Shown here: piece after piece, positions 21,351 through 52,087 of the stretch
Numbering within the stretch: the first letter of the stretch is position 1
Layout: each line of letters opens with the position of its first letter
Made by a program: the position numbers and the translations under genes
Origin: Macrostomum lignano
Lineage: Eukaryota
DNA length: 64,000 bases
Assembly: GCA_002269645.1 (NCBI GenBank)
Contig: NIVC01001176.1
Location: forward strand, 186,001-250,000
Reading direction: 5' to 3'
Notes under the pieces: generated by a model
What the model was told of the DNA's origin: nothing
The model's database searches: none
What the model saw: only the letters and a program-made list of their open reading frames with translations

Positions 21351-23210
21351 ATAAGGAATATATTTGTAGTATAGACAATAAAAGGACAATATAATACAGA
21401 TATACCCTATCTGTCCCCTTCTAGGACTATAGTCTAGACTCCTATTCTGTCTTCCTTTTCAAAGTTTTTAGCTAGAGGCCTAGTTAAGTTAATCCATGAC
21501 CATATTAATATTTCAAAAGTTTTCCTAATATAAATTAAGGAAAGAAGTCTTCTATAAGGTCTAGAAGAATTTAAGAATTTAAGAATTTTGCAGAAATAAT
21601 CAAATATATAGACAATAAATTAAAATCAATTCTTCCTATTTTGGTCTAAAGGTTTCAAACAATTTTTAGGTAGGCCTAACTTGAAGAAGTTTTGCAGCTT
21701 GTCACTCTTAGGTAACATTAATAATATTAATATTTTATTGGTTAGAGTAAATGATGATGAATTTGTAAAAGCACCCAAGAAAAAACATTAATTAATTTGT
21801 CATAGTTATAAAAACCTGTAGCCTGTATACAAAAACTCTCCACACTGAGGGGAGCCTTGACCTCGAGTAAAGTTTCAAACACATGAAGCACAAGCATAAT
21901 ATATATTTTATGCAAATGAATACGCTAGGCCAGTTCTATACATTTAGCAACGTGAAATTCAAATAAACACAAAACATGCTCAATTTAAAAGCATTATGCC
22001 CCGATTATATCGGGATGATGACATGTTGCCGAAATTCCCGCCATGTTTTCAACCCGATAACATCGGTAAAAAATGGTACATCTACTCCCGATAAGATCGA
22101 TGCCACTCGGGTGGTTTAAGCGCCATTTTAACGTCCTCAGTAAAACAAAACAAATGACAAGATTTTATTTTTAAAAACCGATAAGTATTTATAAACGATG
22201 TTTTAAGGGTTATAAAAACCTAGTTTAAGATTTTAAATGGGTAGATAGTCAGTAGAAACTTGTTTTCTACTATTCGATACTGTAAATTATAATAAATCGC
22301 TAAGTGAGAAATATTTATTAATGATGCTCTAGTTATTTCTTTAAAAAATTTATGATTCTTTTAGGGTAAATAATCATTTTAACGATACTAGATATCAGTT
22401 TAAATTACTTAATTAATATGTATAATCAAGTCCACGTGGACATTGACACGCAGCAATTTAAGTTTTCGTTGTATGCAATTTTCTCACTCCAAATATGTCG
22501 AATAAATTAAAAGATTTTTATTGTTAAGTTTATATCTTCTTCTTCGAATTAGGTTGCTAGATATCAGTTTAAATATCGCCTTGCGAGGGTTGGACTATTT
22601 GTTTCACTTTTTAATTTCTTTGCTTTTCTGGTTCGAATATCCTTGATTAAAATTTATGCTTAGTGTTGATATTATAAAACAATTAGTATTAATTTATGTA
22701 ACCTATCGTACTATTTTGAAATAAATTTTCAATAGTCCTTGTTTTAATTGTATTCAATAATTGCTACTCTGTACCTATTTTTAATTATTATTTTTAGCCT
22801 TGGATGTTGCTTGATTGGATAGTGAAGAAATTATTTATAAACTATTGCATTAATTGCTATTTATAAACAATTTCAATTACTACTGGTATCTAATGACAGT
22901 AGCCAAATGCACTATTTATTAATAATATCCGACTTCCGAGTTTTTGATTGTTATATTAATATTTTTTGGTAATAATCCACTCATTTCATTCAAGCAGTAT
23001 ATTACACACTGTCTTACACATTTACTATTTCTTAAGAATTTCATTTTTTTGTTTAGTTGAAATTTTCTGTAGTATTAATTGTGTTAATTCACTGATTTTA
23101 ATTAATCCCAAAAAGCTGTCTAATTGAAAGTTTTTTGTGTAATATTTACTCCTGCAATTTATCGGTCTGGTTTTTTCTACCTGTGCATTTATCATCACGA
23201 TTTTTACGTA

Positions 23211-26178: not shown

Positions 26179-26331
26179 CTGCAGTTCCGTCTGCTGGAAG
26201 ACAATGAGCTCATGTTCGTTTTCATTCTTGTTAACAGTTAATTTAATTATCGTAACTTAAACTGCTACGTAAGATGACGAAGTAACTTAAATTAAGTAAC
26301 TTATTGTTCTTAATGTACTTAGTGTTATTGC

Positions 26332-26497
26332 CAGGGACGCACAAGGGAGGGGGTCGGTCCCCCTCATCTAACTTTGGCAGAGACCTGAAAATCAATCATT
26401 GGGATCTAGCACATTTTCGTCAAACACAGAGTCCCCCCTTTTGGGGTCTTTACCCTCCAGAGTCTGGCCAGTCGAAAGATTCCGGGTTGCGCCACTG
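26332..26497. mobile_element. Degenerate hAT-type MITE
   Basis: CAGGG..CGCA / GCGCCACTG termini and G/C runs like the other MITEs; TSD only 5/8. Confidence 0.4.
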
Positions 26498-27116
26498 TCT
26501 ATTGTGATTTTGTTTTCTTTTTCTCAAATCTGCTTTTCTTCGCACACGCTCATACAGTTTTGATGTACATGTACATGTACGAGACATGTAAAATGATGAA
26601 ATTTTAGCAAACCAGTTGATTTATTATATGAACGAGTTTCATTTCAAAAAACGCAAGCAAACTGTAATTCAACGTTGAGTTATGAGCTACAAAGTATATA
26701 GGTTATCGTGGTGCAAATGACGTTGCCAATTGAGAAAGGGTCAGAATAAAGTTGACTTTTATCAGTTAACAGATTGAAGGCTGAACAAAAACAAAAGTGT
26801 TGTGTCTCTCCCGTTATTTTGATGCAACAGTAGTCAGGCTATCACAACCATAATATTGTCCTGCATTTGTCCCCAAGTTGGACCCTATAGATAGGATATC
26901 AATGTCCCTTTTCTTAATGACTTATCCCTGCACTTCGTCGCTCAAATCAGGCCGGAAGCGCTAGCCCTGTCTCATTAATGAATTATCGTTTCTCCGGTCT
27001 ATACCTTGAAGCAGGTGCCATGCAGCCGTGATTGAGCATTTACCTAAATTAAAAACTATAGATCAGTTGGCCGGGTTACATCTATGTAGATTAAGTACAT
27101 GTTTTACATGTACTCG

Positions 27117-28330
27117 TTATTGCTGCACACCTCGACTGCAAAAGTCGAGCATTTTTTTCATTATTTCCATTTCCTTCTCTCTGACCCCAAGTGCGTGCTT
27201 CTCATTCTGCAGTCGCAATTTTTCAACATCCAGTCGTTCACGTTGAATTGCCAACTGTCCTTCTTCTATGCTGGCAACTCTGTCCATGAGGCCTAGCAGC
27301 AGCTTTTTGTTCGACGCCTCGACATCGGTTGCCCTTGTCGTTACGCGCAGGATGGCTGTAGTGGTTGAGTCCTGGAAATCCCTAACTGTTTGGATTAGCT
27401 CAGCAGCACCACTCCGTCTTTTACGGGATTGGGTATAACTTTCAGTCGGTCTGCTGAATTCTTCTGGCGCCAGATCTATAAAGCAATGCACGGATATAGT
27501 ATAACTGTTTGGCGACAGGCCAAGCTTTAAAAAAATTTTATTAAAAAATAATAAAATTACTATTATGTACTTGTACCTAATGCATAAGAAGTTGGCTGTT
27601 GTGTTCGCACTTGATCGTCTATTTCGCCATTCCTCTCCTCCTCAGACAACAACGCCTTCCACTGACGTTTGCAAACACTGAGGCGTGGATCTCCTTTAAA
27701 GTATATGCAGATGAACCTAGTTATTCGAATTCAAGAGAAGTTTTTAGGGACCGCTGGCATTGAAAACCTTACCAACGTTCCTCGCAGAGGGTGCTGTCGG
27801 TAGGTGCTGACGGCCGTATTGCGCTTGGGTAGTTGTTAAGTCATTCATGGCAGAGGCAGATGCGGTCACAGAAGGTGCACATGTCGACGACAGGAGCACA
27901 CGGGGCTGAATCAGAGGGCTGTCGCCCATGTAGTCATCCATCATTGATGCGAATGGATAAACATGCTCCTTCGTCGAGCTGCCAGTTGGAGGATGCTTGA
28001 ATAGCCTGCACGTTTTTTAAATAAACATTAAATATTGCATATGAAACAAATTTCTTGATTATATGAATTCATATCGTATCAGTGAGTGCACACACCAGTA
28101 TCGCCTTCTCTCGTTGTACCACTGAGACTTTAATTGGGACACGGTCTGATGGAAACCTTTCGTCCGCATCTCTTTAGCTATCCTATCATATTTTTCAGCA
28201 GGTCGAACACCATTTAGCTGGTTTATATTTTGCTCGATGGCCAACTGCAAAAAGATTTTCCTCTCATTGAAATGCCATACTCTGGCCTGTGACGTGGAGT
28301 CAATGCGCTCCTGATCTTGCGCTGGGGACG
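27117..28330 (-). CDS. Harbinger second gene: Myb/SANT-like (trihelix) DNA-binding protein, spliced; 5' limit approximate
   Basis: VWHFNERKIF..KYDRIAKEMRTKGF.QT..QLKSQWYNERRRY; next exon ..MMDDYMGDSP; C-terminal coiled coil (LAIQRERLDVEKLRLQ). Confidence 0.8.
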
Positions 28331-30669
28331 AAATGGTTAACTTAATTATTAGATTGAATGGTATGTAATATAAAAATCAAATATATTTGTCAACAAACTA
28401 CTAATATAAACTTATCTCAAACTTGAAGATATTCGAAAGAATGCAACATACAACGATTGTTCTACGTGTACAAACACAAAACCCCAAAAATTTAACTGTC
28501 AATTGATGCACTGAACTAATATTAAAAATAATCATATTGCTTGCAGCTGGCGACCGTGCATTCACGAACGGCAACTCATTTGTTGTGAATGGGACACTCC
28601 TATCATCAATATCGTCAATGACATCGATGATGCGACTTGTAGTCTCGACGTCTTTGAGTGTCAGATTCAGCAATCCATTCTCGAAGGTTGCAGTTGCTAT
28701 GTTTTATTAAAACGTTAGAGTGCAAGAGTAGACTATTGTCTGAGATTGTTTAAATGACAATGCTACGGATTGTCAACCAAACTTAAGTAAGTACAAATCA
28801 GCATTGGGACTTGCAATAAAAATTGGACTTACCTCCCGACAAAAAGTGCACTGCACTGTCATGGCTAGTCGAGTCAACCAAAATCTTGAGTAGACGTCCA
28901 GCTTGCTAGATAAAAATCTGAAAGTTGGACATTACTCTGCAATTAAATTCTTAAGAAATAGTAAAATGTGAAATGTAAAATATGTAACGCAGTGTATGAC
29001 AGTGTGTAATATAATGATTAAATGAAATGAGTGGATTATTACCAAAAATATTAATATAACAATCAAAAACTTGGAAGTCAGATATTATTAATAAATAGTG
29101 CATTTGGTTACTGTCATTAGATACCAATTGTTTATAAATAAATAAATAAATTTGAAATTGTTTATAAATAGCAATTAATGCAACAGTTTATAAATATTAT
29201 AGCTAGCTTCACTGTCCAATCAAGCAACATCCAAGACTAAAAATCTAGAAAAATAGGTACAGAGTAGCAATTATTGAATACAATTAGAACAAAGACTATT
29301 GAAAATTTATTTCAAGATAGTACGGTAGGTTACATAAATTAATACTAATTGTTTTATAATATCAACACTAATTAAAAGTCTTTAACACTAAGCACAAATT
29401 TTAATCAAGGATATTCGAACCAGAAAAGCAAAGAAATTAAAAAGTGAAACAAATAGTCCAACCCTCGCAAGGCGATATTTAAACTGATATCTAGCAACCT
29501 AATTCGAAGAAGAAGATATAAACTTAACAATAAAAATCTTTTAATTTATTCGACATATTTGGAGTGAGAAAATTGCATACAACGAAAACTTAAATTGCTG
29601 CGTGTCAATGTCCACGTGGACTTGATTATACATATTAATTAAGTAATTTAAACTGATATCTAGTATCGTTAAAATGATTATTTACCCTAAAAGAATCATA
29701 AATGTTTTAAAGAAATAACTAGAGCATCATTAATAAATATTTCTCACTTAGCGATTTATTATAATTTACAGTATCGAATAGTAGAAAACAAGTTTCTACT
29801 GACTATCTACCCATTTAAAATCTTAAACTAGGTTTTTATAACCCTTAAAACATCGTTTATAAATACTTATCGGTTTTTAAAAATAAAATCTTGTCATTTG
29901 TTTTGTTTTACTGAGGACGTTAAAATGGCGCTTAAATTCATTTTAAGTCATTTTAAGTTATTTTAAGCCACTCGAACGCACCCTATACTTAAAATGAAGT
30001 AAATGAATACTTAAACTATGAAGTATAGAAAAACTATATTTTGTGTGATTTTATTACTGTTCTATAAAAATTTCTTTTTTGACGAAACTAGTATTAATTT
30101 TTGTTTATCTTAACACAATTATCCGAATATTCAAATTGCATTCTGAATCTCTTGTGCAGTATAAACATATTACCTTTGGCTTTATAGCCTAAAAAGTCCA
30201 GGTTTCATGCCTTCTAGTCTTATTCTGCAACTGGAAAATTCTCTAACCATAATTTTCAATCAAAATTGTTTATGCCTAGCTATGCGTATGCCTTTATAAT
30301 ATTAAATAATGATTTTGTAATTTAATTCAGATTTACTTTAATACTAATATAGCATAGGTAGGGCCTAAATGAACTTAAAAAAAAATCATTTAGCCATTAT
30401 TATGGTTTCAGTGAGAAAACTTAATATATAAAAGCCTATAGGGCTCATATTTTCATTAAGCTATTATTTATAGCCATGGCTAATTCAAGGAAATGGGCTT
30501 TGCTTGCTTGCCTTGCAAAGCCTTTGCTTTGACCTTTCTAATTCTAGGCTAATATATAATGATTGTTGTGATACCAATACAAGTGCAGCTAATTCTTGAG
30601 CAGCATTATGATATCATTCTGGAATATTCAAGAAGTGATTTTATCACTTCTTATCACTTCAATAAGTGT

Positions 30670-31665: not shown

Positions 31666-33280
31666 TGCTCAGTTTAAATACTCGATATATTTCTGTTAGT
31701 ATAATGTGTTGTATGCATGTTTTCTGTTTTGTAAAAAAATCTTCACGCATTTATCCAGTTTTTGTTTTTTTGTTCTTTTCTCCAGCTCAGTATCATTTTA
31801 CACAGTGAGTTTACACCTCACTTTCTTATTTAGCAGTTAAAGATTTTCTCAAGACTTGCTATTTATTAGTAAAGCCCTGGAGTTTAAAATGTTTTTTGCT
31901 GTTTCCTGAGTTAATGTTTGAAAATATTTTTATAATTAGCCACGCAAATATTAATCTTAAAATCTATGCACAGTTCTGATTGCTTTAATTCTTTGATCAA
32001 CCTCGGATTGCTGTTTGGGTTGACCTGGTGAAGTCATCTCAGCTGCACGGTTGCATGACAGTTACAATTGAGCTGCAAGTAAGAATTTTGCATTGGTTAG
32101 CATCTCTTGATTAGCATCTCTTTTGCATTATTGTGCATCTCTTCTTTAAAGAAAGAGATAGATTTTTATAATTATTATAAATCATATATTGCAATAAATA
32201 TTGTTTTCTTTAACGACATGTAAATATACAATGCCAATTGTTATTTTTGTATGCTTAAATTTACTTTGTGACAAATTCAATTAAGCCTTATTATCTATTA
32301 GTACTTTTCGTGCAACCAACCATGGCTGAATCACATTCAGCCATGGATAGATCACGTTAAATATTTTATAATTAATATCTTGCAGCTGTCCCACAACATT
32401 TCTGGACCAAATGATTAAGACACATTTCTATGTTTTCTCGTGAAGAATAAAAATCGAGCAGGAAAGCATAAGTTGTATTGTAGGTACTGAATATAAAGCA
32501 TCTAACATGAATAAGTCAGGAACAAAATTAATTTTTTATGTGAATCCTAATTATAAATTAGATCTTACTTGAAGTGTTGAAATTCTAAATAAAAATGCAG
32601 AAATGAACATTAAGTAGAATTTCCATTAAGTACTACAATAAGTCATTTTTTATTTTTCAAGTAGGCCCCTAGTTTTTCAGAAGTAATATTGCAAAAAGTG
32701 CTGAGCGAAGGGTATTTAAAGATAGTTCCATTCCTTATTTAATAAATCTTTGTTTCTTATTTAATTTCAAACTGAGTATTGTTCATTCTTCAAATAGTCA
32801 AATATAGTAACTAAACATTCTAAACAAATATTTTTTAGACTTTAGGCTTCTTAATTCTATTGATCAGGAAGTCCTTTCAAGGAAGTCTTTTCGAGTACAA
32901 TGCTAATTTTTTTACGCCGGCAGAATTCTTGCCACGATAAATTTGAATGCATACGACTTGGAGCAAAAAAAACAAAATGTTGCTCAAAAACACTTTCTAC
33001 TTTGATTTACTGTTGCTATTGAAGCAAAAGTAAAAATAATTTGCATATTTAAAATAAAAAAGAATTAGAAGATTATTTTTTCACAATTTTTTTCGTTGTC
33101 CTTTCCGTTACACAGAGTAACAAATTGCTTAATTTCTTCTCATATTTCTGTTTTTCGTGGTTTTAATAGCAGTTTCCTAAAGACCTTGTTGAAAAAAAAC
33201 ACTTTTATGTGATTATTGACTATTTAAAAAACTTTTTTTCAATAACAAAAATTCTTGACCTAGCTTTGAGAACGACCCAT

Positions 33281-34390
33281 CCATTGTAAGTTAATGTCAG
33301 TGTTTGACCAGGACCAAGACTAGTTTCATTCTGATTTTCCTGACTGGGAACTCTTACCTGAGTCGCTTTGATTGTGCTATTATCACTCAAAATAGGCTTG
33401 TTTATTTTGTAGAAAACTGGTGTCAGTGGGTCGTTTATTTTTTTAACTAAAAGAAAATATAAAATAAGAAATGAAGCGAAATAATGCACAGCAGATATCT
33501 GAATTGGAGAAGCTAGCACAAGCAGAAAAGAGAGTTACCGGGCTAATCAATAAGGAGCAACAATCCTACAATGAGTTTGTCCTAGCAGCCACAGAGTTTC
33601 ATAAATCCGGGTATGGTGAAGCTAAGAAAAGTATTGATCAGGTCAAAGAAACTATTGATTGCGACATACAGGAAACCCAGGTGCAAAAGGCTTTGGGCAA
33701 AATTCCAGAGGCACCGCAGATACAGTCGCAACCACAACAGTCTAAATATACTAAATCTCTAATCCTATATACTAAAAATGAAAATCTTCACAACTAAAAG
33801 TGACATGTAACATTTTTGGACCAGCAGAACATGATGGGAAATATGTATTTGGAATAAGTATGTGGAGAAAAAACATTTATAATGAACCAGTGGAATATTA
33901 TATCGACATAAATAAGAATTTTTATTTGATCCAGCGTGCAAGAATGCTTTGGAAGTCGCCATATGCGTGCAGAAATGCAAGTGTCTAATAGCACCTTGAA
34001 TTTACATGTGCACTCCGTGCAGGAATGTCAATCGTGCAAGAATGTAATGCGCAATGTTTCTATATTTAGCATAACAGCCATAGACTGCAAGCACAATCTC
34101 CTTTCCATCGTGCAAGAATGTTCAGACTAGCTCGCGCATATTTTTTCTATGGTTCAAGTCTAACTCCACACCCCCAGCTCCATCCTTGTCTACTTTAGCC
34201 ACACATGTTGGATCAAATAAGAATGGGAATCAGGCACTTTGACTTGTGCGTCTATGGCAAAAACCCTCGGTTGGGAAACCTGTGTTTGGGAGAAGGGTTT
34301 GGTTTTCTATTGCACGCGCCCAGTAAAGAAATAGACAGAATGCTGAAAGAAATGAGAGTAGAATATTCTGTCAGTTTACATTGATAAAAA
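33281..34390. pseudogene. Fragments of a second, related Polinton (capsid N-terminus, 452-aa-protein homologue, PLA2 C-terminal module)
   Basis: 33281-33440(-) NDPLTPVFYKINKPILSD..SLGPGQTL; 33471-33760(+) MKR..QQISELEKLAQAEKRV; ~33820-33930 DGKYVFGIS.WRKNI; ~34270-34384 CLG.GF..LHAP.KE..R.LKE..VE. Confidence 0.9.
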
Positions 34391-37223
34391 ACTGAGAAAC
34401 AGAAGCCACAGATTATAGTTTTTTATGTGTAACAACTTTACGCTTCTGCTGCTCGACCGAAACCGTAATGGCTTCTAGTTCACCTATGGATGTCGATTGG
34501 CGTATAAACCTGTCTGGCGAAACAGCGCAACGGAGACTATGCGAGGTCTTATCTGAGACTTTAGCAGAAATCAAGGATCCAGTTAGAGCTGCGGAGAAAA
34601 GACAAAAGATCGCCAGATTTTTCGGGCTCAACAAAGAGTCGCTGCAAATGGAAGTCCTCACTCTAACGCGGCGGCAGGAGGCCAGTGATCGCGTGGCCAG
34701 AGCGGCGAGGTAAGCGCAAAGAAGACTTCAAACAGAAGCTCATCGTCTCACGAATTCCCCAAGCGGATGTTGGGAAACCTGCCGATGATGATGGCGGTGA
34801 TGTGGTAGAGCGTCTGCAGTGCGCTCTGCTTCGTCTGAGAAGGTCGCAGAAGAGTGGTCTGTATCTGCGATCCAATGTGAAAAAATCTTGTTGACATTTT
34901 AAAGCCAGTAACAAAAACTACGGTAGGAAGGCACGAAAACAGCATTTTGACTCGATCTTCTTGATCGAGTAAACCTCAAGGTATTGTCAGCAAACTGGAA
35001 ATGTTTCAAAAGGGTTCAGCTGGAAAGTGAATACCCTGGTCTTAAGAAAGTCTCCCTGCCGCTTCGTGATTTGAACGCTAATATGTCGATGTTAATGTCA
35101 ATGTCAATATTTTACATGTATGTTAGTTCATTGAAACTATTTTTGACAGAATTGCGCTTATATAAAGTTAAAATTTCAAATGTTTACACAAAAGAGCTTA
35201 CACGAAATACATCGAAACAATCGAAACAAACAATCGAAACAAACAACACGAAACAATATCAACTTTTGCCTCAAACCCTAATTTTACACGAATGTGCTCC
35301 ATTTTATGTCTACCTCTATCCTACTAACATTAATTTGTTTGTGTATGGCCTTAGATTTCAGAATACATGCGAAAGTAGTTCCGCGGATTGGAATTCCCCG
35401 TGTTTCAAAATCTTGTTTCAACAAGAAATCTTGTTTCAAAGTTTCAACAGCTTGTAGATTACTATATACGTATTTCTCTGCCTAAAATCTTTTATTTTTT
35501 ATTGTAATTACTACGTAATGTACAGAAACTGCTGGGTTTTCAGATGTTTTGACGCAAAAAACGCAAATTATACTAATATCTGAAAATCAAGTAAGTAGTA
35601 TATGAAAACGATATCCTAAGCGTGATATACATGGCATACTTCAATATGTACTCGCATATGTACATTAATCCATGTACTCACATGTGTACATTAATTTCTA
35701 TCTATCTCAAATTGTATATGTACATTGACTACTTCTATGTCTACCTCAATTCTATATGTACATTGTCTACTTGTACAGTGCATACTTCTATATGTACACT
35801 TGCGCATTAATCTACTTCTATGACAATTTATATACGTACAGTGTATACATTAATCCCCAATCTACACGACGGCCTCCGCTCTGCGTATTTGAATCGTCAA
35901 CCCCACAAGATTATATGTACAATTCCAACTCGAAACCCTAATTTATGCGTGTACAGTTGTATATGCGCAGAGGTGGGTCGGTGCGCGCGCGCGATGTACA
36001 ATCCCATCTACTACCAAATGAGTCAACTAATTGTGTAGCTCACATCGTATATGTATAAACTATTTACAAGAAAGAAATATTTAAAATAAATCAGTAGCAT
36101 ATTACAGGAAGTAATTTATATACAACATCACCAGCGAATAGAATATACAAAAAAATTTACATTGCTTTTCAATAATTTTCTCTTCATAAATAACTTTAAA
36201 CAAGTCCGAGACGCAAAATATGTACAATAGATTTTTACATTGGCAATTTCGCCGCATACAATACAAAAATGCTTTATGTACATTTGACATGCAAAATATG
36301 TACAACAAATAGATTTATTTTACTCTAATAAATTTAACAATACAAAAATGTACATTTAATAGTCGGTCCACAAGGGCTACATTATTAATAACCATAAGGC
36401 CTGCTGTAGACCCCGTACACGCGTTTCGTCAGGACGCGCTGAAACGTCTTTTCCATACTAACAGTTTGTACGGTGCAAGACGCCTTGTCACGCCTAAATT
36501 GAAACTGTGGCAGCTGCAAAGAGCCATTGACCCCGCTTTGAATTTTAGGCTGTCAAAAATGTTTGATTGATGACCCTCTGATAACACAGATCCTGCAGCA
36601 GCAAACATTGTAAAATTAAGAAAACCCCCTATCAGCAAGTGTCTCCATTGTGCCTCCTTGACACCTAGCAACAATACCATGCAGCCGCTTTTGGATTTTA
36701 AAGCTGTCATAAATGTCTGATTAATAACCCTCACTGTAGCACCCAAGTTTTATTGCTGCCAAACTCCTACTATCAATTACTGTGGTGATTACATCATGTT
36801 GAGCCTAAAAATCGGGGTTGATTTTATCACTGCCTCCTGCCTGCCCGCTGAGTCACGTTTACGCCCACCGCAGGATTGCTGTTTTTGCTTCTCTCTTGTT
36901 CAAGGATTAGTCGTATAGCCCCCTTGGAATTTTATGACTATTCTCTACAGGCATTATCCAACTATACAATCTTCTCTATACGCTCGTACTGCTGCGGATA
37001 TTCCCCAAAACTCTGATATTTCAATAGGCCTGAATTGAGAAATCCAAATAATCCAGTATATTCAAATAAATCCAGCTGCTACTGCTTCTGCTGCGATTGC
37101 GGCTGTGACTGCTGGTGCTGATACTCCTGTAATCTCCTTTATATAACCCAGGAAGAGGATGCCGCAAACAGAGAGCGCGCGGTGTGCATTATTTCTCTTT
37201 CCCCTGTACTGCATTTGCAAATT

Positions 37224-37277
37224 AGTGTACAATTGTACACTCAGACCCCAACTTGGTATAGAAAAGTTGGGGTCTGA
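37224..37277. promoter_or_regulatory. Palindrome plus hairpin at the centre of a putative bidirectional promoter (copy 1)
   Basis: AGTGTACAATTGTACACT palindrome abutting TCAGACCCCAACTT-9nt-AAGTTGGGGTCTGA; TATA-like motifs ~100-150 bp away on each strand. Confidence 0.6.
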
Positions 37278-37514
37278 AAATACCCCATCATTTTCGTTCT
37301 CGCACAGATTGTAATTGGATCTGAGTGCATCTAGCCAACCGGTAGTGTTGTAGGAACAAAAAATGCAGACCGCAGCCTCACCTCCTCAGAGTACAGTCGC
37401 TTTCGCGGGTATATAGAGGACCACGCTGGAGCTGAGAAATTTTTCAGAATTCTCGCTCCGACACTCAGCATCAGCAGCATCAGTCGCTCTCTTTCTCCGT
37501 GAAACTCTGTTAAA

Positions 37515-37854
37515 ATGTCTATTCCACTTGTTGAAAATTACGTGCTGCGCAAGCCTACATTCGATACTGATCGAGAACTGATTGAGATTCGGCGACAAGA
37601 AAGGCAAGTATAAGAAAGGTTTCCCCGGCGTGTTTCTAACTCGCATGGAGTGGCAGCAGCTCAAGCAGGCGCGCGGGATTATTGAGTCTCTGCGCATCCT
37701 CGACTGCTCTCGTCATGAACGGTTTCAGCTGGGCGAGGGCCGTAAGATCCTGGAAGTAAAAAACAGCCAGATTTGGCTGCATCGCAACAACCCGGCCGAC
37801 TCCGACAACGGATGCTGCGATGAGGGCGAGCGCTGGAAATACTCATTAAATTGT
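37515..37854 (+). pseudogene. PC4/Sub1-like protein, copy 1 (10-bp deletion, 3' end replaced by a LINE fragment)
   Basis: MSIPLVENYVLRKPTFDTDRELIEIRR..KKGKYKKGFPGVFLTRMEWQQLK; closely similar to 51392-51955. Confidence 0.65.
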
Positions 37855-38477
37855 TTCCATCACCAGCGACAGCCTGAGCGCCATCACGGCCCTGAGCGCT
37901 GGGCCGCTCAGACAAAGGGACCCCGTGGCAGCCGAATGCTGGCAGCTCACCCTGGACCTGGCCGAGCGCGGTACCAGGATCGGCTTCTGCTGGGTCCCTG
38001 CCCACTGCGGCATCACCGGCAACGAGGCGGCCGACCTGGCGGCGGCCCGGGCAGCTACTCTCGATCAAAGCCAGGTCCCGATCCAGGCGGACGCCGCCAG
38101 AGCGGCAGCCCGACGCAGCCGTCGCAACCTGGACGCCTAAGCAGTTCTGGAGCCCGCCCCTAGGCCTGTCGAGAAAACAGCAGGTCCTAATCAACCAACT
38201 GCGCGCGGGCGCCAGCATGATAGACAGCAAGACTCGCCACCGGCTCGGCATCGACGCGTCCCCTCTGTGCCCCGACTGCGGAGAGACGGACAGCGCCGAC
38301 CACGTCATCCTCCGCTGCCCAAGAGGCGACCGTCACCGAGCCCTTTGCGGCATCCCGGCCGAGACCTTGATGGAGAGTCCGGCCGCGGTTTTCGAGCTTC
38401 TGCGCAGTATGGGGCGCCTCTAGCGCCCCCGCCCCTATCGGTTTTCCGGCTCGGGCGCGCCCTGAAACAGAAGAAAA

Positions 38478-38508
<31 letters not shown>

Positions 38509-38520
38509 GCAGCAGCACCA
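37855..38520 (+). mobile_element. 3' fragment of a non-LTR retrotransposon (Ingi/I-like RNase H + Zn knuckle)
   Basis: SDSLSAITALSAGP, CWVPAHCGITGNEAAD, CPDCGETDSADHVILRCP, stop at 38423, then short UTR and (CAG/CAA)n tail. Confidence 0.8.
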
Positions 38521-39468
38521 ATGATGACGACTTCGTAGGCTGGTGCGGCGGCAGTTATTGCGGTAATAAGTTTGCCAGCCCAGCAACGGCTGTGGGCTAC
38601 TGGGGTCAAGCACTAAAGACTGGGAAGCTGCCATCGCAGCAGCCGCTGCCGTTACCGCCTCCGCAGCCGCCGCCGCCGCCGCCGCACCTATTGTCGAGTC
38701 GGACAACAGCAGCGGCCTGAAGCAGCAGAAGAAGAAAAGCAACGGATTGGAAATCAATCTAGCCCCGCCGCAGCTGAGCACGCCGACGACGACGAAGCAG
38801 CCTGCCAAAAATGTTTGCAACGTTGGTGCCGCGAAACAGATCTGGATGTGGTAAATATTATGACTGCTTGCTGAAAAACTTTTTAGCTAATTACATGCAG
38901 ATTCGAAAACTTTCAATGCATTATAGCCGGAAACTTTTTCACCCATTCCCCTTTCTAGCTAGCCGACTATTGTTTTGGCACTCCCTCTGAGGAGAGAGCT
39001 TATTACACGGTTGTGCAGGAGCGGCGTGAGCATGAGGCGGAGCTCCATGAGGAGGTCGCCGAAGAGCTAGATAGACTGTTCCCGGTTCGGGGCTTTGTTA
39101 ATATTGACAATTTAATGTTGTGTCTGCACGCATTTTTATTTTCATGCACCTTGTACATATCTTGTTTTTATCAAGTGTTGTGTCTGCACTCAACTTAATT
39201 ACATGCACCTCGTACTATATCTCAACTTTATTATTAAATGTTGTGTATGCACACATACTTTATCTATGCACCTCGTGTTAGTTTTCAAATAAATTGTTTT
39301 GTAAAATTTGGACTGTTAATTGAACATGGTGTTGAGTTTTTACCATTTTTTATTTCGAGTAATGATATTTAGAATGAATGCAAAACTATAACATTCTGTG
39401 TGTGTGTAAACACTGCGACTGATTCTAACCAAAAACTCACCAATTCCAGCTACATCAACCTCATCATC

Positions 39469-39990
39469 ATGGTTGCTTTAAAGGCGTCGCTGCTGACTGA
39501 AGGTGCTCGCCCGCCGGTCCGCCAGACGATCGGCTCTGTTGGCTATGATCTCTTTGCCTCTGAGGACGCTGTTGTCCGGGCCCGGTCGGTTGCGCAAGTG
39601 CGTCTCGGAATTTTAATCCAACCGCCTGATGGGACCTACGCTCGGATTGCCGGCCGGTCTGGGCTGGCGTTGCGCAAGTCAATACAAGTGGGCGCCGGCG
39701 TGATCGACCCTGACTATACTGGAGAATTGACTGTGGTGATATTTAATCATGGTAGTGCGGACTGGTTTATAACTCGGGGCTACGGTATCGCTCAATTAGT
39801 TTTGGAGCGTGTAATGATTGCTCCCGTAGTTGCAAGGGATCTCTATAGGGGGAATGGCGAAGAGGAGGAGGCTGCTTCCAGCAGCAACAACTCAACTCGG
39901 CTGGGGGGTTTGGGAGTACAGGCTATAATCAAGCCTCAACTTGTTGTTGTCCCCAGGCTGTTCTGTTCTCTGTTTCAACTATTGAAATGA
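39469..39990 (+). CDS. dut: Intronless dUTPase; motif 5 frameshifted
   Basis: GSVGYDL, RSG, GVIDPDYTGE, IAQL; a 1-nt deletion turns GGFGSTG into GGLGVQ near 39910. Confidence 0.93.
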   Translation: MVALKASLLTEGARPPVRQTIGSVGYDLFASEDAVVRARSVAQVRLGILIQPPDGTYARIAGRSGLALRKSIQVGAGVIDPDYTGELTVVIFNHGSADWFITRGYGIAQLVLERVMIAPVVARDLYRGNGEEEEAASSSNNSTRLGGLGVQAIIKPQLVVVPRLFCSLFQLLK

Positions 39991-41006
39991 AAATATACAT
40001 GATCTCCACTTTTCAAATGTAAAACTATGAATGCAATCTTTTTCAGTAAGAATCTTGACTCGAAACTCTACTAAAGGTAGTATAGTGTCAGTAATCAGAT
40101 ACATTTAGTTTTGAGTAATTGAACATATATATAGAAATATGCATATAGCGTGCTTTGTAAAACTTTAGGTTAATTGACTCATTTGGTAGTAGTAGATGAT
40201 GGGATTGTACAGCGCGCGCGCACCGACCCACCTCTGCGCATATACAACTGTACACGTAACAATAAGGGTTTCGAGGGGAATTGTACATATAATCTTGTGG
40301 GGTTGACGATTCAAATACGCAGAGCGGAGGCCGTCGTGTAGATTGGGGATTAATGTATACACTGTACATATAGAAATTGTCATAGAAGTAGATTAGTGCG
40401 CAAGTGTACATATAGAAGTATGTACTGTACAAGTAGACAGTGTAAATATAGAATCTGAGATAGATAGGAATTAATGTACATATGTGAGTACATGGGATTA
40501 ATGTACATATGCAAGTACATGGATTAATGTACATATACGAGTGGATATTGAAGTATACCATGTATATCACGCTTAGGATAGCGTTTTCATATACTACTTA
40601 CTTGATTTTCAGATAGTAGTATAATTTGCGTTTTTTGCGTCAAAACATCTAAAAACCCAACAGTTCCTGCACATTACGTAGTGTAATCTCACTTGAATTT
40701 TTTTATATTTTCTCTTTCCAAATCACTTACATTAAGTGATTTTCGAAGCCAGAAAGTGTCCACAGATGACATTTGCATGCGCTAATACATTTACTTATAG
40801 TGGTTAAAATGCGCATGAACTCAGTATTAATTCTTGTTGTAGGGGAAATGTGGACTCTGCTGCAGAAATTTCCGTGGGAAAACCACGGGCCTATAGTGTG
40901 TTAACATTGGTGGACCTGCAAAATTGACAACAATACACTACAAGGCTTTTGTTTCAGTGTTGCATGCTAAATAAATGTAAATATTTTTTTAATTTTCCCG
41001 TAAATC

Positions 41007-41350
41007 ATGTCTTCTATCTCTCTATACGAAAACTTTGTGGCGCGGAAGCCCACATTAGAAACCGAGCACGACTTAATTGAGATTCGAAGGCTCCACACAG
41101 ACGAGGCCGGAGTGTGGAAGGACGGCTTCCCTGCAATCTACTTGAGCGAACCAGAGTGGAAGAAGCTCGAGGGTGCGCGCCCTGACCTGGAGGCTGCTGC
41201 ACGTCTTCACGTGGACAAGTGGGTCGTGCAGGGCAATTTCAAGGCAGTCGAAGCTTCGCGAGGACGGCGGCTACACAATCGAGTTTACGCCTGAACTGTG
41301 GCGCAGGATGTTTGCCTCCCGTTTGGACAAGCTCTTTAAGCCTGCTCTCG
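41007..41350 (+). pseudogene. Divergent PC4/Sub1-like paralogue
   Basis: ENFVARKPTLETEHDLIEIRRLHTDEAGVWKDGFPAIYLSEPEWKKL; frameshifted continuation ..GYTIEFTPELWRRM. Confidence 0.6.
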
Positions 41351-44712: not shown

Positions 44713-45133
44713 GTAGTGTGTAGCATCTAGCATGCGGAAGAAGTCCAGCCATATCTAGAGAGACTGAAACTGGATATTTGCCAAATAGTCAAATTAACAA
44801 CGTATTGAAATTTTCACACGTCTGGAACGGAATGGAACTATCTTTAAATACCCTTCGCTCAGCACTTTTCCATACACACTAAGACTATTGAAATTACAAT
44901 TGGTTTTAAGTTTGTCATATTATATGACAATATAGCCATGGGTCGTTCTCAAAGCTAGGTCAAGAATTTTTGTTATTGAAAAAAACTTTTTTAAATAGTC
45001 AATAATCACATAAAAGTGTTTTTTTCAACAAAATCTTTAGGAAACTGCTATTAAAACCACGAAAAAACAGAAATATTGAACGTTTTTAATTTTCAATTAA
45101 CAGTAGGAATACAAAGCCATTTTTCCGCCCGTC

Positions 45134-46668
45134 GAACTACCAAGAGGGGGGGGGAAATTCCCCCCCCTGACAATTTTTTTTGCTGCGCCGGAACGGAGCA
45201 ACGCAGGCACACGAAATTCAAGAACACGGGCTAACTTTTTGTTGCGCACCTTCTCAAACAAGAATCAAGTCGCCAGCCCTTCGGACCGTCGAGATATTCG
45301 ACGATTCTGCCAGAAGGTCGGATTTTTCCCATAAGTGCTAGTGTATTCAGTGCACCCCTGTGCGCCAATTAGCACTACGCCTCAGTGCAGCCTTGCCAAG
45401 TCTCCAAATTTCATCAGCACGTTGAACACATGTGTCTGCATCAGCTGTGACTTCGTTGGTCACTAGCCTTCACCCAAGTGGAGCTTCTGGACCCTCAACA
45501 GCTGTGGCACCAGGTGACTATGGACACTCTGATGCGGATTTCTCTAGTTTCGCCGATCAAGCCTCGACAGTGGGCAAGAATCAACCGCCAGACATTCTCA
45601 GCTAGTCTCTCAAGCATTCCGTCATCACCCCGACGCCGTCGGCACCTTCAACAGGTGGCACCAGGAGAGTAAGGACACCTGAGTGTGATTTTTCATCATG
45701 CTCTTAACATTTCTGAATCATTAAAAAAAACCGATTGAATTTACTGGCTTCTTAAAAGCATAACCCTTTCTGGATAAAAATTAAGTTCAATATTATAGTT
45801 GAATAAACTAAACAGCTTTTAGAATAAAATATGTATGTAGCTCGTATGCATAAAAGTATGTGTAATAATAATATAAATATACAGCAACATGCGTTCAAGC
45901 ATAACTACAGCAATGTCCGTGCTTTAAAAATTTTGAGAGCTTCAGAAATGTTCAGATGAAAAATCACGCTCAGGTGTCCTTACTCCCCTGGTGCCACCTG
46001 TTGAAGGTGCCGACGGCGTCGGGGTGATGACTGAATGCTTGACTGACTAGCTGAGGATGTCCAGCAGTTGAGGTTTGCCCATTATTGAAGCTTGATAAGA
46101 AAAACCTGACATATTTGCAACAGGATGTTCATAGTCACCTGTTGTAATCTGTTGAAGGAGCCGACGGCGTCGGGATGATGACGGAATGCTTGAGAGACTA
46201 GCTGAGAATGTCTGGCGGTTGATTCTTGCCCACTGTCGAGGCTTGATCGGCGAAACTAGAGAAATCCGCATCAGAGTGTCCATAGTCACCTGGTGCCACA
46301 GCTGTTGAGGGTCCAGAAGCTCCACTTGGGTTAAGGCTAGTGACCAACGAAGTCACAGCTGAGGCAGACACACGTGTTTAACGTGCTGATGAAATTTGGA
46401 GACTTGGCAAGGCTGCACTGAGGCGCAGTGCTAATTGGCGCATAGGGGTGCACTGAATACACTAGCACTTATGGGAAAAATCCGACCTTCTGGCAGAATC
46501 GTCGAATATCTCGACGGTCCGAAGGGCTGGCGACTTGATTCTTGTTTGAGAAGGTGCGCAACAAAAAGTTAGCCCGTGTTCTTGAATTTCGTGTGCCTGC
46601 GTTGCTCCGTTCCGGCGCAGCGAAAAAAATTGTCAGGGGGGAATTTCCCCCCCCCCTCTTGTTAGTTC
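45134..46668. mobile_element. Foldback element / large palindrome
   Basis: 45134-45697 is the near-identical reverse complement of 45955-46668 (right arm has an extra ~140-bp repeat unit); 257-bp AT-rich spacer. Confidence 0.88.
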
Positions 46669-47929
46669 TACTGTTAAATAACCTCAAAAAGACTCAGAAA
46701 TTTTTAACTTGGAGTGTTGTCAATTAAGCTCCAAGCCAAACATTGGCTACACAAAACTGAAAAAAATATTTGTACTCAATTGTGCGGCGCTATGACGGTC
46801 CTGCAGCCAGGATCCAGCTTCACCTGCATAAAATTCTTTTTACTTTTTAAAAAGTATTGTATTGTTTGTATTGTTTGTAATTTTCAATGTTCTTTTCTCG
46901 AAAATTAAAAAAATTGGGGTCTTGAATGACTCCTAATACGAAGGGCAGTATGGGGAGCAAGTATAACGCGCAGCAGGTGGCCTTTTTACTGCCTGTATCC
47001 TATTATTCTGAACTGGGTTTTGCTTGCAAGGGGGGATTGTGGCACGGTTAGACTTCTGCAATTTATTAAGATCTTTTCTTTTGTTCTTTGTGGGTGCCTG
47101 GTTCCTCTATTCTTGTAATGCAGAAATAGTTAGATCGAGAAAGAGTTTTTCAGCAACTTGGTTGATCGGTGTGGGGTTTTTTCTTTCTCGTTCTTTGTGG
47201 GTGCGCTGCAGTTGGAATTCCCGTAGTATACCCTACCATTTGGTTCGGTACCTTAGTATTTGATTTTTAATAGAAAAATAGGGTACGTGCGTAATACAAT
47301 TTCTGACGGGTACCTTATTACGTATTTTGCAATTAAAAAATGGGGTATGGACGTAATTTTCCATTACTACTCTCTATCAGTCGTGACTAAGGGGTAGCAG
47401 GCATCCAAGGTTACAAGGTAGCTGGCGTAAGAGGCCTTCAGAAGCCACCAAAAATGACCAGTTACAGTTGGGCTAGAACCAAATATTATCCTTGGGGTAG
47501 ACGCTAAGGCTGCATTATTATAAAATAATGTATAAGCATTACCAATCTATTTCAAATATCTAGGCATTGCAAGAGATGGCGCAAGACTAGCAAGAGCTCT
47601 AGCTAGCTATTGCCATCTAACTTTTATTCGCTAATTGATTTACCGATTATTGTGCTATTGCAATGCAGAGTTGCAAAAGGTTGATCCCAAATAAGAAAAG
47701 CATAACTCAAGAAAACGCAAAAGTGAGGAAGGAAGTCCGTTAGATAAATGGATGCAACTTATGACATGAGACCTGTACCAGCAGTATAGGCCTAGTTCAA
47801 ATTTGTGTGCAACATATGTAAGCAGTATCTTATTGACTACACAACTAAAATCGGTAGTCCTAAAATTAGGACACTTGGGAATAGGATAACATTTCTAATT
47901 CTACAGTAGTATAGGGCGAATGGGTCCCT

Positions 47930-48375: not shown

Positions 48376-50308
48376 TTATGACGACGCGGGTTTACATGTA
48401 AATGGGCTACTAAAAAGCAAAGCAGCGGCATTTCCGCGATTTTCCTCCGGGGCGGGCCGAATACGGATACTCACCGAATACAGATTGGCAGCACTCTGAA
48501 GCTCCCCAGTCAGCTTTGTCTGCATTGGGGAGTCGGCCTTGATCGTTTGCCACGTATGCTTAGTAATGACCTTGACCTGCAGATCCGCGTAGACCTTGGC
48601 CACCACAAGCGCCCGAATTAAACAGCGCTTGTCTTTGTTGGCGATGACAACGTAATTGCGTCCCCCAATCGAATGGCGGGTCTGAATGTGCTTTTCCACC
48701 GCATCTAGGCTGCCGCAGCCGCCCCGTGGGACCCAGGCCTTGAGCAAAAACAATTTAAAGTTGTTGCCCAAGACACTGGAGTCCGACTGCAGAACCTTAT
48801 TAATATACTTGAATATTAACTCAGCTGTAAAGCGGGCGGCGCGGACCGGCGGGACATTGACGGTCAACATCATGTTGTCCGCCGTCAGCTTAGCTGAGAT
48901 GAAATCGTTTGCGTGCAAGTCACTGCAGAGTGCCGAAATTATATCCGCAAACGTGGTGCGAATATCGGTAGTATTTGTGAAGGCTACTTCATATTCGTAG
49001 CCTTTAGCTTTAAATTTAGGCAGGGTCTTTGCCCCGCCAAGGTGCGCAATGAAGCCTGAAAAAATGAGGGTTTTGAACTTAGAATTCCGAGAGGCGGCGG
49101 GTGAATGACTCATTAAATAAAATAAACTCCTTACCATCGCCTTCGACAGTGTCGGGCCGGGGCGGGGGTTGAAATTGAGCCAAATCTGCAATAAAAATGT
49201 GCATGGCGACTAAAATTCTGACCGCTTCGAATTTTTAAAACGGTCAAAAACTTTTGATTTATTGCCCTGCAGTAGCAGCAACTTATTCGCCCACCCCCAA
49301 GCAACAAAAATCGGCAAGTTGTAAAAACCCCAACTCGCAAAAAAAACAAAAGGAATGTGGGGTTGATTGACCCCGCTTTGAATTTTAGGCTGTCAAAAAT
49401 GTTTGATGACCCTCTTGATGACACAGATCCTGCTGCAGCAGCCATTGTAAAATTTAAGAAAACCCCCTATCAGCACCTGTCTCTATTGTTTCGTACCCCT
49501 CCTTGACAGATAGCAACGATACCACGCGGCCGCTTTTGGATTTTTAAAGCTGTCATAAATGTCTGATTAATAACCCTCACTGTAGCAGCCAAGTTTTATT
49601 GCTGCCAAACCCCTACTATTAATTGCAGCGGTGATTACATCATCATGCTGAGCCCAGAAAATCGGGGTTGATTTTTTTACTGCCAGAAAGCCTGCATGCT
49701 CGCTGAGTCACGTTTGCGCCAGCCACCGCAGGATTGCTGTTTTTGCTTCTCTCTCTCTCTCTCTCTCTCTAGTTCAAGGATTAGTCATATACTGCCCCTG
49801 GAATTTTTTGACTATCCTCTACAGGCATTATCCAACTATACGATTTCTATACTGCGGATATTCTCCAAAACTCTGTTATTTCAATGGGACTGAATTGAGA
49901 AATCCAGATAAATCTAAAGCAAAAGCAGTTTCTTCCCTTTACTTCAATACGATATCTATGTCAGGAGGACGGCCTGACTTCAGAAATTTTAAGCCAAAAG
50001 GAATGTTAAAGATGAAAAGCAGTGGTTTCAAAGAAAGCCCATATTTCAATAAGCGTGAAGTTTGCAAATCACATAAATGCTAAAGCTGAAAAGCAGTTAT
50101 ACAGCCCTATTTTTCTGAATTTAGAGTTTGCGAATGCTTAGGATGAAAAGCATAGTTTAACACGCAGAGACTTGCAACAAGACTCACCTAGCTGTCGTCC
50201 CCTCTTTGCGGCCGGAGGCTGAGACTGCTGCTGCTGCTGCTGTGAGGGGCCTGCTCGCCCCCACAAAGCTGAAATAGCGGCTTCAGCGGCTGGGCGTTTT
50301 GATGCCAT
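48376..50308 (-). CDS. Spliced gene encoding the N-terminal (terminal-protein/OTU-like) region of a second pPolB type (exons 50308-50188, 49185-49135, 49055-~48475)
   Basis: Exon 3: VPPVRAARFTAELIFKYINKVLQSD..PRGG..IANKDKRCLIRALVVAK..W..I......Q..L; canonical GT-AG sites, both junctions phase 1; no polymerase core downstream. Confidence 0.62.
49366..49915 (+). repeat. Dispersed direct repeat of 36525-37050
   Basis: Shared from ATTGACCCCGCTTTGAATTTTAGGCTGTC to GAATTGAGAAATCCA with substitutions and indels. Confidence 0.9.
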
Positions 50309-50500
50309 TCTTTGCTTCTGCTTCTTCTTCTGCGGCTGCTGCTGCTGCGATTGCGGCTGATGCTGCTGTGATTGCGGCTGTGACTGCTGATGCCGATACT
50401 CCTGCAATTTCCTTTATGTACCCCTGTAGGAAGGGATGCCGCAAACAGAATGCGCGCGGTGTGCATTATTTCTCTTTCCCCTGTACTGCATTTGCAAATT

Positions 50501-50554
50501 AGTGTACGATTGTACACTCAGACCCCAACTTGGTATAGAAAAGTTGGGGTCTGA
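50501..50554. promoter_or_regulatory. Palindrome plus hairpin of the putative bidirectional promoter (copy 2)
   Basis: Hairpin identical to 37241-37277; one mismatch in the palindrome; 50335-50810 is homologous to 37075-37530. Confidence 0.6.
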
Positions 50555-51391
50555 AAATACCCCATCATTTTCGTTCTCGCACAGATTGTAATTGGATCTG
50601 TGTATCTAGCCAACCGGTAGTGCTGTAGGAACGAAAAATGCAGACTGCAGTCTCACCTCCTCAGAGTACAGTCGCTTTCGCGGGTATATAAAGGACCAAG
50701 CTGGAGTTGAAATTTTTCAGAATTCTCGCTCTGACACTCTCAGCATCAGCAGCAGCATCAGTCGCTCTCTTTCTCTGTGAAACTCTGTTAAAATGTATAT
50801 TCCACTTGTTGATGAAATATTTATATGTCTATTTCAAATATCAATGTGAGAGCCAAATAACTGAGGCGGCGGATTCAACTGACTTCTCCTGATGATGCAA
50901 AACACTTGATGGTAACTTACAGACCGTTGTATTTGATGGTCACAATCTCGAGATGTTATCTTACAAAATATAATGTCTAAGATGGAATTCCAAATAAGAA
51001 GCTCGTTTTGTTCGAGTTCCAAGGGGTTTCCAAGTTTTCGGGTGAACCGAAGGTTCAGACTATTGTGGAACGTGGGTTGGTTGTTGTTTTGGTTTTAGTG
51101 AGTTAATTTATCAGTTTTAGTATTTGGGTTGAGACCCTAACTGTGTCAATCAAAAGTAGTCAGAGTAGGTATGTTAGAAATAGCGAGAAGAGAGAAGAGA
51201 GGCGAGGCAAGGCGAGCTCCTTGCTTGGTTAACATGGGCTTTTATAGTACTTTTCAGTCTTGATCGCATTGGATAGTACATAGCTGCTTTTCATTGGTTG
51301 AGGTTGGGGTCGTGTCCCCAGCTTTTGCTAGTTGGAGCGCATTCATTGGTTAAAATACATTCAATCTGGATGGGAACTTTCTAGAGCCAAA

Positions 51392-51955
51392 ATGTGTCAC
51401 TTCATTGAAAATTACGTGGTGCGCAAGCCCACATTCGATACTGATCGAGAACTGATTAAGATTCGGCGTTTCTACACCGACAAGAAAGGCAACTACAAGC
51501 TCGGTTTCCCCGGCGTGTTTCTGACTCGCATCGAGTGGCAGCATCTTAAGTGGGCGCGCTGGATTATTGAGTCTCTGCGGATCCGTGACTACTCTCGTCA
51601 TGAACGGTTTCAGCTGGGCGAGAGTGGTCGCAAGATTCTGGAAGTGAAAAACAACCAGATTTGGCTGCATCGCAACAACCCGGCCGACTCCGACAACGGA
51701 TGCTGCGATGAGGGCGAGCGCTGGAAATACTCAATCAAGTTGAGCATTAAATTGTGGACTGCTCTAATGGATGCTGACGTTGATTCGCTGTTTGTCTCGC
51801 AGTCGCCGCCACCGCTGCCAAGACGACGGCTTCAGAGCCAGCATCGTGGTTCAACGGCAGCAGCAGCAACAGCAATGATGATGACGGTGAGGGTAGCCGC
51901 CGCCGCCACAGTGCTGACACCCCGCCGCCGATTGAACTGCAGCCGCCGCCGGTGA
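51392..51955 (+). CDS. PC4/Sub1-like ssDNA-binding-fold protein (probably tandem domains) with low-complexity tail
   Basis: IKIRRFYTDKKGNYKLGFPGVFLTRIEWQHLK aligns gaplessly, 12/32 identical, with human PC4 [32 protein letters not shown] (from memory); a second weaker repeat FQLGE..RKILEV....W..SIKL..KLW. Confidence 0.65.
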   Translation: MCHFIENYVVRKPTFDTDRELIKIRRFYTDKKGNYKLGFPGVFLTRIEWQHLKWARWIIESLRIRDYSRHERFQLGESGRKILEVKNNQIWLHRNNPADSDNGCCDEGERWKYSIKLSIKLWTALMDADVDSLFVSQSPPPLPRRRLQSQHRGSTAAAATAMMMTVRVAAAATVLTPRRRLNCSRRR

Positions 51956-52087
51956 AGAAGCTTCCCACTACTACGGCTGGCAGCGAAGGCGACGGCAGCA
52001 GCAACAACGGCAGCTACAAGTGGTGGTACTCGTTTCCTAAGGACTCGACTGAGGAATTCCAAGCTATGCCTGGGAGGCGGGGCGCAT

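Follow-up and report, generated by a model that had tools for sequence, protein, structure and literature searches.

A polymerase-deleted element in the flatworm Macrostomum lignano and two sister families of compact pPolB elements, probable Polinton-derived satellites

The window analysed here, a stretch of 64,000 nucleotides of Macrostomum lignano DNA (contig NIVC01001176.1 of assembly GCA_002269645.1, positions 186,001 to 250,000 of the forward strand), carries an element bounded by long terminal inverted repeats (TIRs) and containing remnants of a protein-primed DNA polymerase gene (pPolB), a PC4-like gene and a dUTPase gene (Table 1). This copy is dead, an ordinary deletion derivative of a family, here called A, which is itself not ordinary. 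The TIRs of about 520 bp described in an earlier, sequence-only reading agree with the alignment of 35510-36030 to 40170-40682 (528 aligned columns, 89% identity). The outer limits given there, (T/C)ACTAC...GTAGTG with 4-bp TAAT flanks, had to be redrawn. When the first 192 bases were used as a query against the 764-Mb genome (213 candidates, 40 scored, 30 loci compared), the base preceding ACTAC was A, C, G or T and, since it varies across the 30 loci, the element starts at 35510. It opens with ACTACG and closes, at 40682, with CGTAGT, the actual termini thus being ACTAC...GTAGT, and it is flanked by GTAATT and GTAATC, a 6-bp target-site duplication (TSD) with one mismatch (5/6).

Table 1. 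Features of the element and of a second decayed piece, in positions of the window
Feature	Positions	Strand	Basis
Target-site duplication, left copy (GTAATT)	35504..35509	.	Flank comparison and TSD table
Left TIR, begins ACTACGTA	35510..36030	+	TIR alignment, 30-locus comparison
pPolB last-exon remnant, ~46 codons and stop; 3' untranslated region on the TIR side	36385..36525	-	
Deletion junction, ~4.0-4.3 kb of the pPolB gene lost	36525..36526	.	Comparison with long copies
Non-coding 5' region of the pPolB gene (putative first intron in full copies)	36526..37047	-	Alignment to the C1263 and C157 copies; donor sites
Divergent intergenic region, pPolB / PC4-like; TATA-like boxes near 37138 and 37410; 14-bp perfect stem 37241-37277	37077..37514	.	
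PC4-like single-stranded-DNA-binding gene; frameshifted (stop at 37611), 3' end cut off	37515..37844	+	
Non-LTR (long terminal repeat) retrotransposon 3' fragment, in place of ~1.3 kb of the element	37845..38465	+	
Low-complexity open reading frame (ORF) remnant, function unassigned, found in dUTPase-bearing copies	38466..38840	+	
Intronless dUTPase, frameshift just before the C-terminal glycine-rich motif	39469..39930	+	
Right TIR, ends TACGTAGT	40170..40682	-	TIR alignment
Target-site duplication, right copy (GTAATC, 5/6)	40683..40688	.	
Further decayed piece of family A, with the N-terminal exon of pPolB, the hairpin region and a PC4-like ORF	48376..52000	.	

Apart from the 4.0-4.3 kb lost from pPolB and the replacement of 1.3 kb, the window copy is colinear with three longer copies (C157, C1263 and C694). 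One of the two origins proposed in the sequence-only reading, a deleted form of a linear virus-like replicon, is thereby upheld: the longer elements with the same TIRs, which it had recommended looking for, encode pPolB and no CMC transposase. Among the 40 of 93 candidates that were scored, the deletion junction was found only in the window and at a duplicate locus on C1753, whose right flank is identical; the deleted form has therefore not spread. The pPolB C-terminal remnant, the retrotransposon fragment and the frameshifts in the PC4-like gene and the dUTPase had been overlooked. The retrotransposon fragment contains what we take to be an RNase H-like WVPAH motif and a CCHC knuckle, and gave no Pfam match in the one frame scanned; the C-terminal glycine-rich motif of the dUTPase is in frame in four other copies. 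As for the hairpin bidirectional promoter that had been proposed, the hairpin is present as a 14-bp perfect stem between the two TATA-like boxes, while a promoter function is suggested by the gene layout only.

Family A consists of compact elements of 8.5-10.8 kb with ACTACG ends. Its sister, family B, has ACTACT ends, a PC4-like gene and a pPolB 62-72% identical to that of A. Tight end patterns retrieved 160 A ends (5 in the control) and 222 B ends (0 in the control), and the copy number of both families together is about 190 elements, of which 34 complete ones (22 A and 12 B) were read whole. In the fullest copies (C157, C1263, C694) the order is TIR, pPolB, hairpin region, PC4-like gene, low-complexity ORF, dUTPase, TIR, with pPolB and PC4 divergently oriented. 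Among the complete elements, pPolB is present in 18 of 22 A and in all 12 B; the PC4-like gene in 3 of the 18 pPolB-bearing A and in all 12 B; and the dUTPase in 5 of 22 A and in none of the 12 B. Perfect 6-bp TSDs flank 30 of the 34 (18/22 A and 12/12 B), the remainder being the window copy and three A pairs matching at 2/6 positions, whose two ends agree at 23-31 of 40 terminal bases and seem to belong to different elements. All of 7 further A pairs have perfect 6-bp TSDs, some of them being duplicate loci. Among the complete A elements, C2786/C4430 and C485/C3173 are probably duplicates. Two A target sites lie in simple repeats and are uninformative on TSD length, and a length scan of 22 elements gave a 6-bp match, not one of 4.

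Queries for integrase, major and minor capsid proteins, ATPase and protease, taken from three Polinton families of the same genome, gave no match in the 34 elements at E<0.1 apart from a single one (E 0.092) over the dUTPase. Ten compact elements contain 301 frames of at least 85 codons; 50 of them match pPolB, PC4 or dUTPase, and 115 ORFs representing the remaining 251 matched no relevant Pfam family, no transposase and no helicase. Transposases occur inside complete elements only as unrelated insertions. Longer A elements (12-24 kb) were ruled out as fuller versions, since those whose ORFs were read carry retrotransposon-like insertions. An accessory ORF of ~340 codons (L140 4297-5424, minus strand), which follows PC4 in half of the B copies read (the query and 6 others of 12), was considered as a hidden integrase and rejected: it has no Pfam or atlas match and is missing from the youngest B copies. 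Those youngest elements (C1412, C173, C1247) have little space beyond the TIRs, PC4 and pPolB.

The pPolB gene of the long elements is divided into several exons. Its gene models match PF03175, a database gene model of it matches adintovirus PolB and the phi29 polymerase in fold, and its identity to oyster, fish, frog and insect proteins is 28-37%. In the C157 copy, four GT..AG introns are skipped in contigs of runs guessed to be RNA (in 1, 3, 2 and 3 of three runs, from three studies), and no spliced joint was found in a DNA-type run; on the runs so labelled, pPolB is transcribed and spliced by the host. Families A and B share the codon positions of the donor sites, each donor pattern being present in 28 of 34 elements. 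Three of these sites lie inside the catalytic polymerase motifs DVV/SLYP, NS/LWGK and DTDS (L074 8210, 8839, 9201; L121 7576, 8210, 8572), known as motifs A, B and C. Catalytic-motif sites are favoured by inteins and homing introns, of which the intron positions in pPolB are reminiscent. Relatives found in viral contigs have no introns there, and of the 6 such contigs that were checked 4 have integrase, capsid, protease or ATPase matches; intact vertebrate Mavericks are likewise described as free of introns (PMC8097293). The N-terminal domains were folded confidently in the model, with a Cys and a His placed as PMC11161782 describes, and their atlas matches were unnamed clusters only; the placement may point to putative terminal-protein and vOTU domains.

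The ratio of non-synonymous to synonymous substitutions (dN/dS) in stop-free copies was 0.11 for pPolB in both families (10 A and 7 B copies), a value indicative of purifying selection on the polymerase, as against 0.28 and 0.22 for PC4 and 0.26 for the dUTPase. Between A and B, synonymous sites of pPolB are near saturation (proportion of synonymous differences, pS, 0.68). In a quick-search tree of one natural exon with 47 rows, A and B group together, with a long common stem, within the animal Polinton-type pPolBs and far from the polymerases of the three intact local Polintons; a decayed relic of the same polymerase class on C234 is not their sister. A genome search with outgroup polymerases, in which all 111 candidates were scored, yielded only A, B or the C234 relic among those placeable by position or reading.

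Both cargo genes named by the sequence-only reading are confirmed. The PC4-like gene matched Pfam PC4 with E 9e-4 on the second copy in the window, 7 of 7 aligned homologues did so at E<=0.1 (best 6e-8), and the top Foldseek matches of its model were human PC4 (best E 0.005, none at <=0.001). The nearest PC4-like genes of this genome outside A and B are in full Polintons. A PC4-bearing third group was rejected as a sister family, its members being full Polintons; at L175, L187 and L184, full Polintons carry a two-domain PC4-like protein adjoining the integrase. A literature search for "adintovirus" and "PC4" found no paper. A 1.3-kb AGTAGT-ended mini-element on C356 (L181 4552-5885), with a 5/6 TSD, retains a PC4-like ORF alone.

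The dUTPase at 39469 is intronless and matches PF00692 with E 7e-27. Its 120 database matches are nearly all unnamed. It shares ~47% identity with the likely host gene and 45-52% with the dUTPases of local Polintons, and in the tree it forms a long branch of its own, which is not sister to the host gene and falls outside the clade formed by nine dUTPases of local Polintons. The label "viral-type" given to it earlier is not borne out, as grouping with the host gene is not rejected by the approximately unbiased (AU) test (p=0.117). Of the two outcomes that the same reading had set against itself, the wide occurrence of the TIRs without this cargo was found, the dUTPase being confined to 5 of 22 A elements, whereas the other, a dUTPase grouping with the host gene as a retrocopy, was not: the identity and the separate long branch indicate that it is not a recent one. 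The likely host dUTPase (C52, C55, C600) is present in three copies, intronless across the catalytic region.

The two ends of a single element are identical at 40 of 40 bases in 22 of the 34 elements, and bases 8-27 differ between elements. Over the first 35 end bases of A and B, positions 1-5 and a T run at 28-31 are invariant, and bases 8-27 form a mosaic-like pattern of interchangeable blocks of 4-5 bases, matching at both ends of one element. Some derivatives are palindromic, both of their ends being formed by the arm with pPolB or by that with the dUTPase (C2786, C4430, C2132). In addition, a young A-ended group of 9.1-9.9 kb without pPolB motifs (C301, C657, C903, C1299, C1526, C2205, C2455) has arms that match the ORF-poor element C3158 twice, in inverted orientation, leaving no more than 0.8 kb in the middle of C301 unseen; as judged from these alignments, its members are non-coding near-perfect palindromes close to the length of the coding form. 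Such palindromes would be expected from snap-back copying of free linear DNA, and their length may reflect a size constraint, for example packaging.

By definition, Polintons combine a polymerase with an integrase, and they are today regarded as endogenous viruses. In this genome, an integrase is encoded by at least three Polinton families; for the type present in the window, a 22-mer of the integrase gene has 204 matches and the ends have 348. The window copy of that type (1269-17164) is a canonical Polinton with AGTAGA ends and the TSD CCATTG, split by a non-LTR retrotransposon (6597-8798) and coding for PLA2-like, integrase and adenovirus protein-X-like proteins, a pPolB with an endonuclease VII-like domain, a protease and capsids. 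Both this copy and the canonical Polinton C4072 have 6-bp TSDs, and a 6-bp duplication is the Polinton-type signature (PMC8097293). An end architecture that A and B might have in common with AGT-ended Polintons was considered but not adopted (24 matches, versus 12 in the control). Of 86 A/B ends, 12 are situated in Polinton or A/B sequence, and one B element sits inside a capsid gene.

On this evidence we consider it probable that A and B are self-replicating, Polinton-derived satellites which replicate with their own pPolB and depend for insertion on an integrase taken from Polintons resident in this genome. The cycle begins with transcription and splicing of the pPolB gene by the host, as seen at the four GT..AG joints. 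The polymerase, with its putative N-terminal priming and protease domains, would initiate at the ACTAC ends and copy by strand displacement, helped by the PC4-like single-stranded-DNA-binding protein and, in some A copies, by the dUTPase. This mode of copying would keep the ends of one molecule identical and would yield snap-back palindromes, which could themselves be copied and inserted as defective passengers. A retroviral-type integrase of a full Polinton would join the ends to host DNA, and insertion leaves the observed 6-bp duplication. The window copy is one product of this history, having lost most of pPolB, gained a retrotransposon fragment and failed to spread in that form.

Several observations and limits of the data weigh against this proposal. 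All eight Polinton ends read (C4072, C130, C219, C136, C6, C530, C356 and the window) begin with AGT and none with ACT, so that an integrase acting in trans must accept a different second base; Maverick ends starting with AC have been reported in swamp eel (PMC8097293), which implies that such integrases can handle them. PC4 is missing from 15 of the 18 pPolB-bearing A elements, which must therefore do without it or obtain it in trans. Among the first 100 listed ends, some 15 B-ended pairs with a length of 8-10 kb (C93, C181, C303, C436, C625 and others), known from their ends alone, match neither pPolB, PC4 nor the accessory ORF; their interiors could be palindromes or a second segment. A 40.6-kb B-ended pair on C271 spans an integrase match, probably a nested insertion; the assignment of that integrase to the Polinton type of the window was dismissed, as it is not among the 22-mer matches. 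The 34 elements read whole were chosen through similarity to pPolB, dUTPase or TIR, ORF and tblastn tests would miss a gene in many short exons, and the dN/dS values come from stop-free copies pooled across non-independent pairs. The RNA label of the runs is a guess, no run being recorded as RNA, and contigs only were used; no free linear form was seen in the assembly and contigs, data which could not reveal one. Finally, the count of A/B ends nested in Polinton or A/B sequence is inflated by the choice of loci.

The same end pairs lend some substance to a two-segment system, in which the pPolB element would serve for replication and the integrase and capsid genes would be found on a further ACTAC-ended segment of about the same length; the ~15 B-ended elements could be that segment. 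Many 8-10 kb end pairs without pPolB exist, the unit length is strikingly constant, the A/B ends are unlike every Polinton end read, and matching termini are known across bidnavirus segments (PMC8502044). However, the A pairs without pPolB are near-perfect palindromes whose longest arm frame has 106 codons and whose arm indels are mostly not multiples of three (445 of 3012), which disfavours a second segment of A type, and none of 73 capsid matches fell within end pairs (first 100 listed ends per family, compared by eye; 126 of 195 candidates scored). We therefore regard two segments as improbable. It is also unlikely that A and B are deletion derivatives of an ordinary ACTAC-ended Polinton which was the source of integrase until recently and is now missing from the assembly or circulates as a virus. 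Non-autonomous Polinton derivatives were reportedly described by Kapitonov and Jurka in 2006, the PC4-only AGT-ended derivative of 1.3 kb on C356 is one such case here, the relic on C234 is a decayed intronless Polinton with the same polymerase class, and the AC-starting ends of swamp eel Mavericks (PMC8097293) fit as well. Against this, A and B share the same minimal plan and introns despite 62-72% pPolB identity and a pS of 0.68, which points to one old loss; and TIRs up to 100% identical imply recent insertion, yet nothing other than A, B and the C234 relic was placeable among the 111 outgroup candidates.

The mismatch between A/B ends and local Polinton ends, together with 2971 integrase-like candidates in the genome, could instead suggest integration by a non-Polinton enzyme (an LTR-retrotransposon or Ginger-type integrase) or by a heavily spliced gene hidden in the element. 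We hold this to be very unlikely, as 6 bp is the Polinton-type duplication (PMC8097293), also made by the local Polintons, and the youngest B elements leave little room for a hidden gene. The remaining origin put forward in the sequence-only reading, a Pack-type CMC/Chapaev transposon with captured viral genes, retains virtually no probability. Transposons of this group have CAC...GTG termini, short TSDs (2-4 bp) and, in autonomous copies, a DDE transposase. None of the three is found in A/B, whose ends are ACTAC...GTAGT, whose TSD is 6 bp, and whose long copies encode pPolB, with no transposase in the 34 complete elements save in unrelated insertions; once the ends are placed correctly, nothing speaks in its favour.

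Around the element, the window contains further mobile DNA. At 40837-41294, 150 bp to its right, TIR-like sequence of the C219/C356 Polinton family is followed by a fragment of a family-B PC4-like gene, and 33193-33797 consists of fragments of the window Polinton, so that together these form a nest of related elements. A PIF/Harbinger-type element with a 553-bp perfect TIR core and DDE_Tnp_4 and Myb/SANT fragments occupies 22115-29936, and a short element at 45131-46671 consists mainly of two 550-bp inverted arms, 96% alike.

Two families of about 190 copies, in which only the polymerase is kept under selection, suggest that a replication module can persist as a mobile element of its own in an animal nucleus. 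A more far-reaching version of the satellite proposal, which we advance only as a tentative possibility, is that in an animal, Polinton viruses have genuine satellites in A and B. These would form an ancient lineage stripped down to the replication module, its polymerase gene interrupted in all three catalytic motifs by introns that the host splices; it would take integrase and capsids from helper Polintons and spawn unit-length defective palindromes, giving three tiers of virus, satellite and defective satellite. If the ~15 B-ended elements proved to be a second segment, the system would even be a segmented one of Polinton-like type. Since surveys demanding an integrase beside pPolB or intronless ORFs would miss elements of this type, they may be widespread. 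The transcribed and spliced pPolB, in a culturable flatworm with several young Polinton families, offers a handle on Polinton questions, including whether protein-primed Polinton DNA exists free, how the integrase reads the ends, and whether particles form.

With regard to known systems, the closest likeness is to Polintons/Mavericks (eupolintoviruses, adintoviruses), which share with A and B an animal-type pPolB, long TIRs, a 6-bp TSD and a short repeated end motif; PC4-like and dUTPase genes are also present in local Polintons. TIRs of 100-1500 bp and TSDs of 5-8 bp, as in Polintons, are found in both families. In contrast, the retroviral-type integrase of Polintons is present in 0 of the 34 complete A/B elements, as are their capsids, packaging ATPase and protease, for which Pfam was also blank. 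Non-autonomous Polinton derivatives, as this class is generally understood, resemble the window copy and the non-coding palindromes in having TIRs and a 6-bp TSD without an integrase; A and B differ in that the parent family keeps a selected polymerase and no cognate integrase-bearing parent was found in the sequence read. Polintons are reported to measure 13-25 kb (10.1101/2023.08.22.554363), versus 8.5-10.8 kb in A/B; their described end motifs are (AGT)2, (AG)3 or (AC)3A, versus ACTACG in A and ACTACT in B, and the intronless state of intact vertebrate Mavericks contrasts with the spliced pPolB of A/B (PMC8097293).

Transpovirons, like A and B, are capsid-less linear elements with TIRs that depend on a virus and can insert into it (PMC11161782; 10.64898/2026.10.13.758929). 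They have a Tlr1-like superfamily 1 helicase and parasitise mimivirids of protists, whereas A and B have a plain pPolB and reside in the nuclear genome of an animal, where Polintons would be their helpers; for such dependence on a helper and packaging by it, the indications are indirect, namely constant length and nesting in Polintons. Fungal linear plasmids of cytoplasm and mitochondria (pGKL, kalilo) are also capsid-less pPolB replicons, but they are episomal and extranuclear, whereas A and B are integrated with clean TSDs and use host splicing. Cytoplasmic linear plasmids are considered Polinton-derived through loss of the morphogenetic module, and a title cited in the same source mentions a deletion derivative of kalilo that forms hairpin and duplex DNA (PMC11161782). 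As far as the available parts of these sources go, one survey took only integrase-linked pPolBs (10.1101/2023.08.22.554363), capsid-less pPolB elements comprise transpovirons and fungal plasmids (PMC13215967), mobile pPolB modules are paired with DDE integrases (10.64898/2026.10.13.758929), introners lie within dinoflagellate Polinton-like elements that retain integrase and capsid (PMC12166617), and no element of A/B type appears (PMC8502044). A full-text literature search gave no account of such elements; Repbase and supplements were outside its scope, and an entry there is possible. A and B fall outside both Polintons and transpovirons, and work like a capsid-less pPolB replicon.

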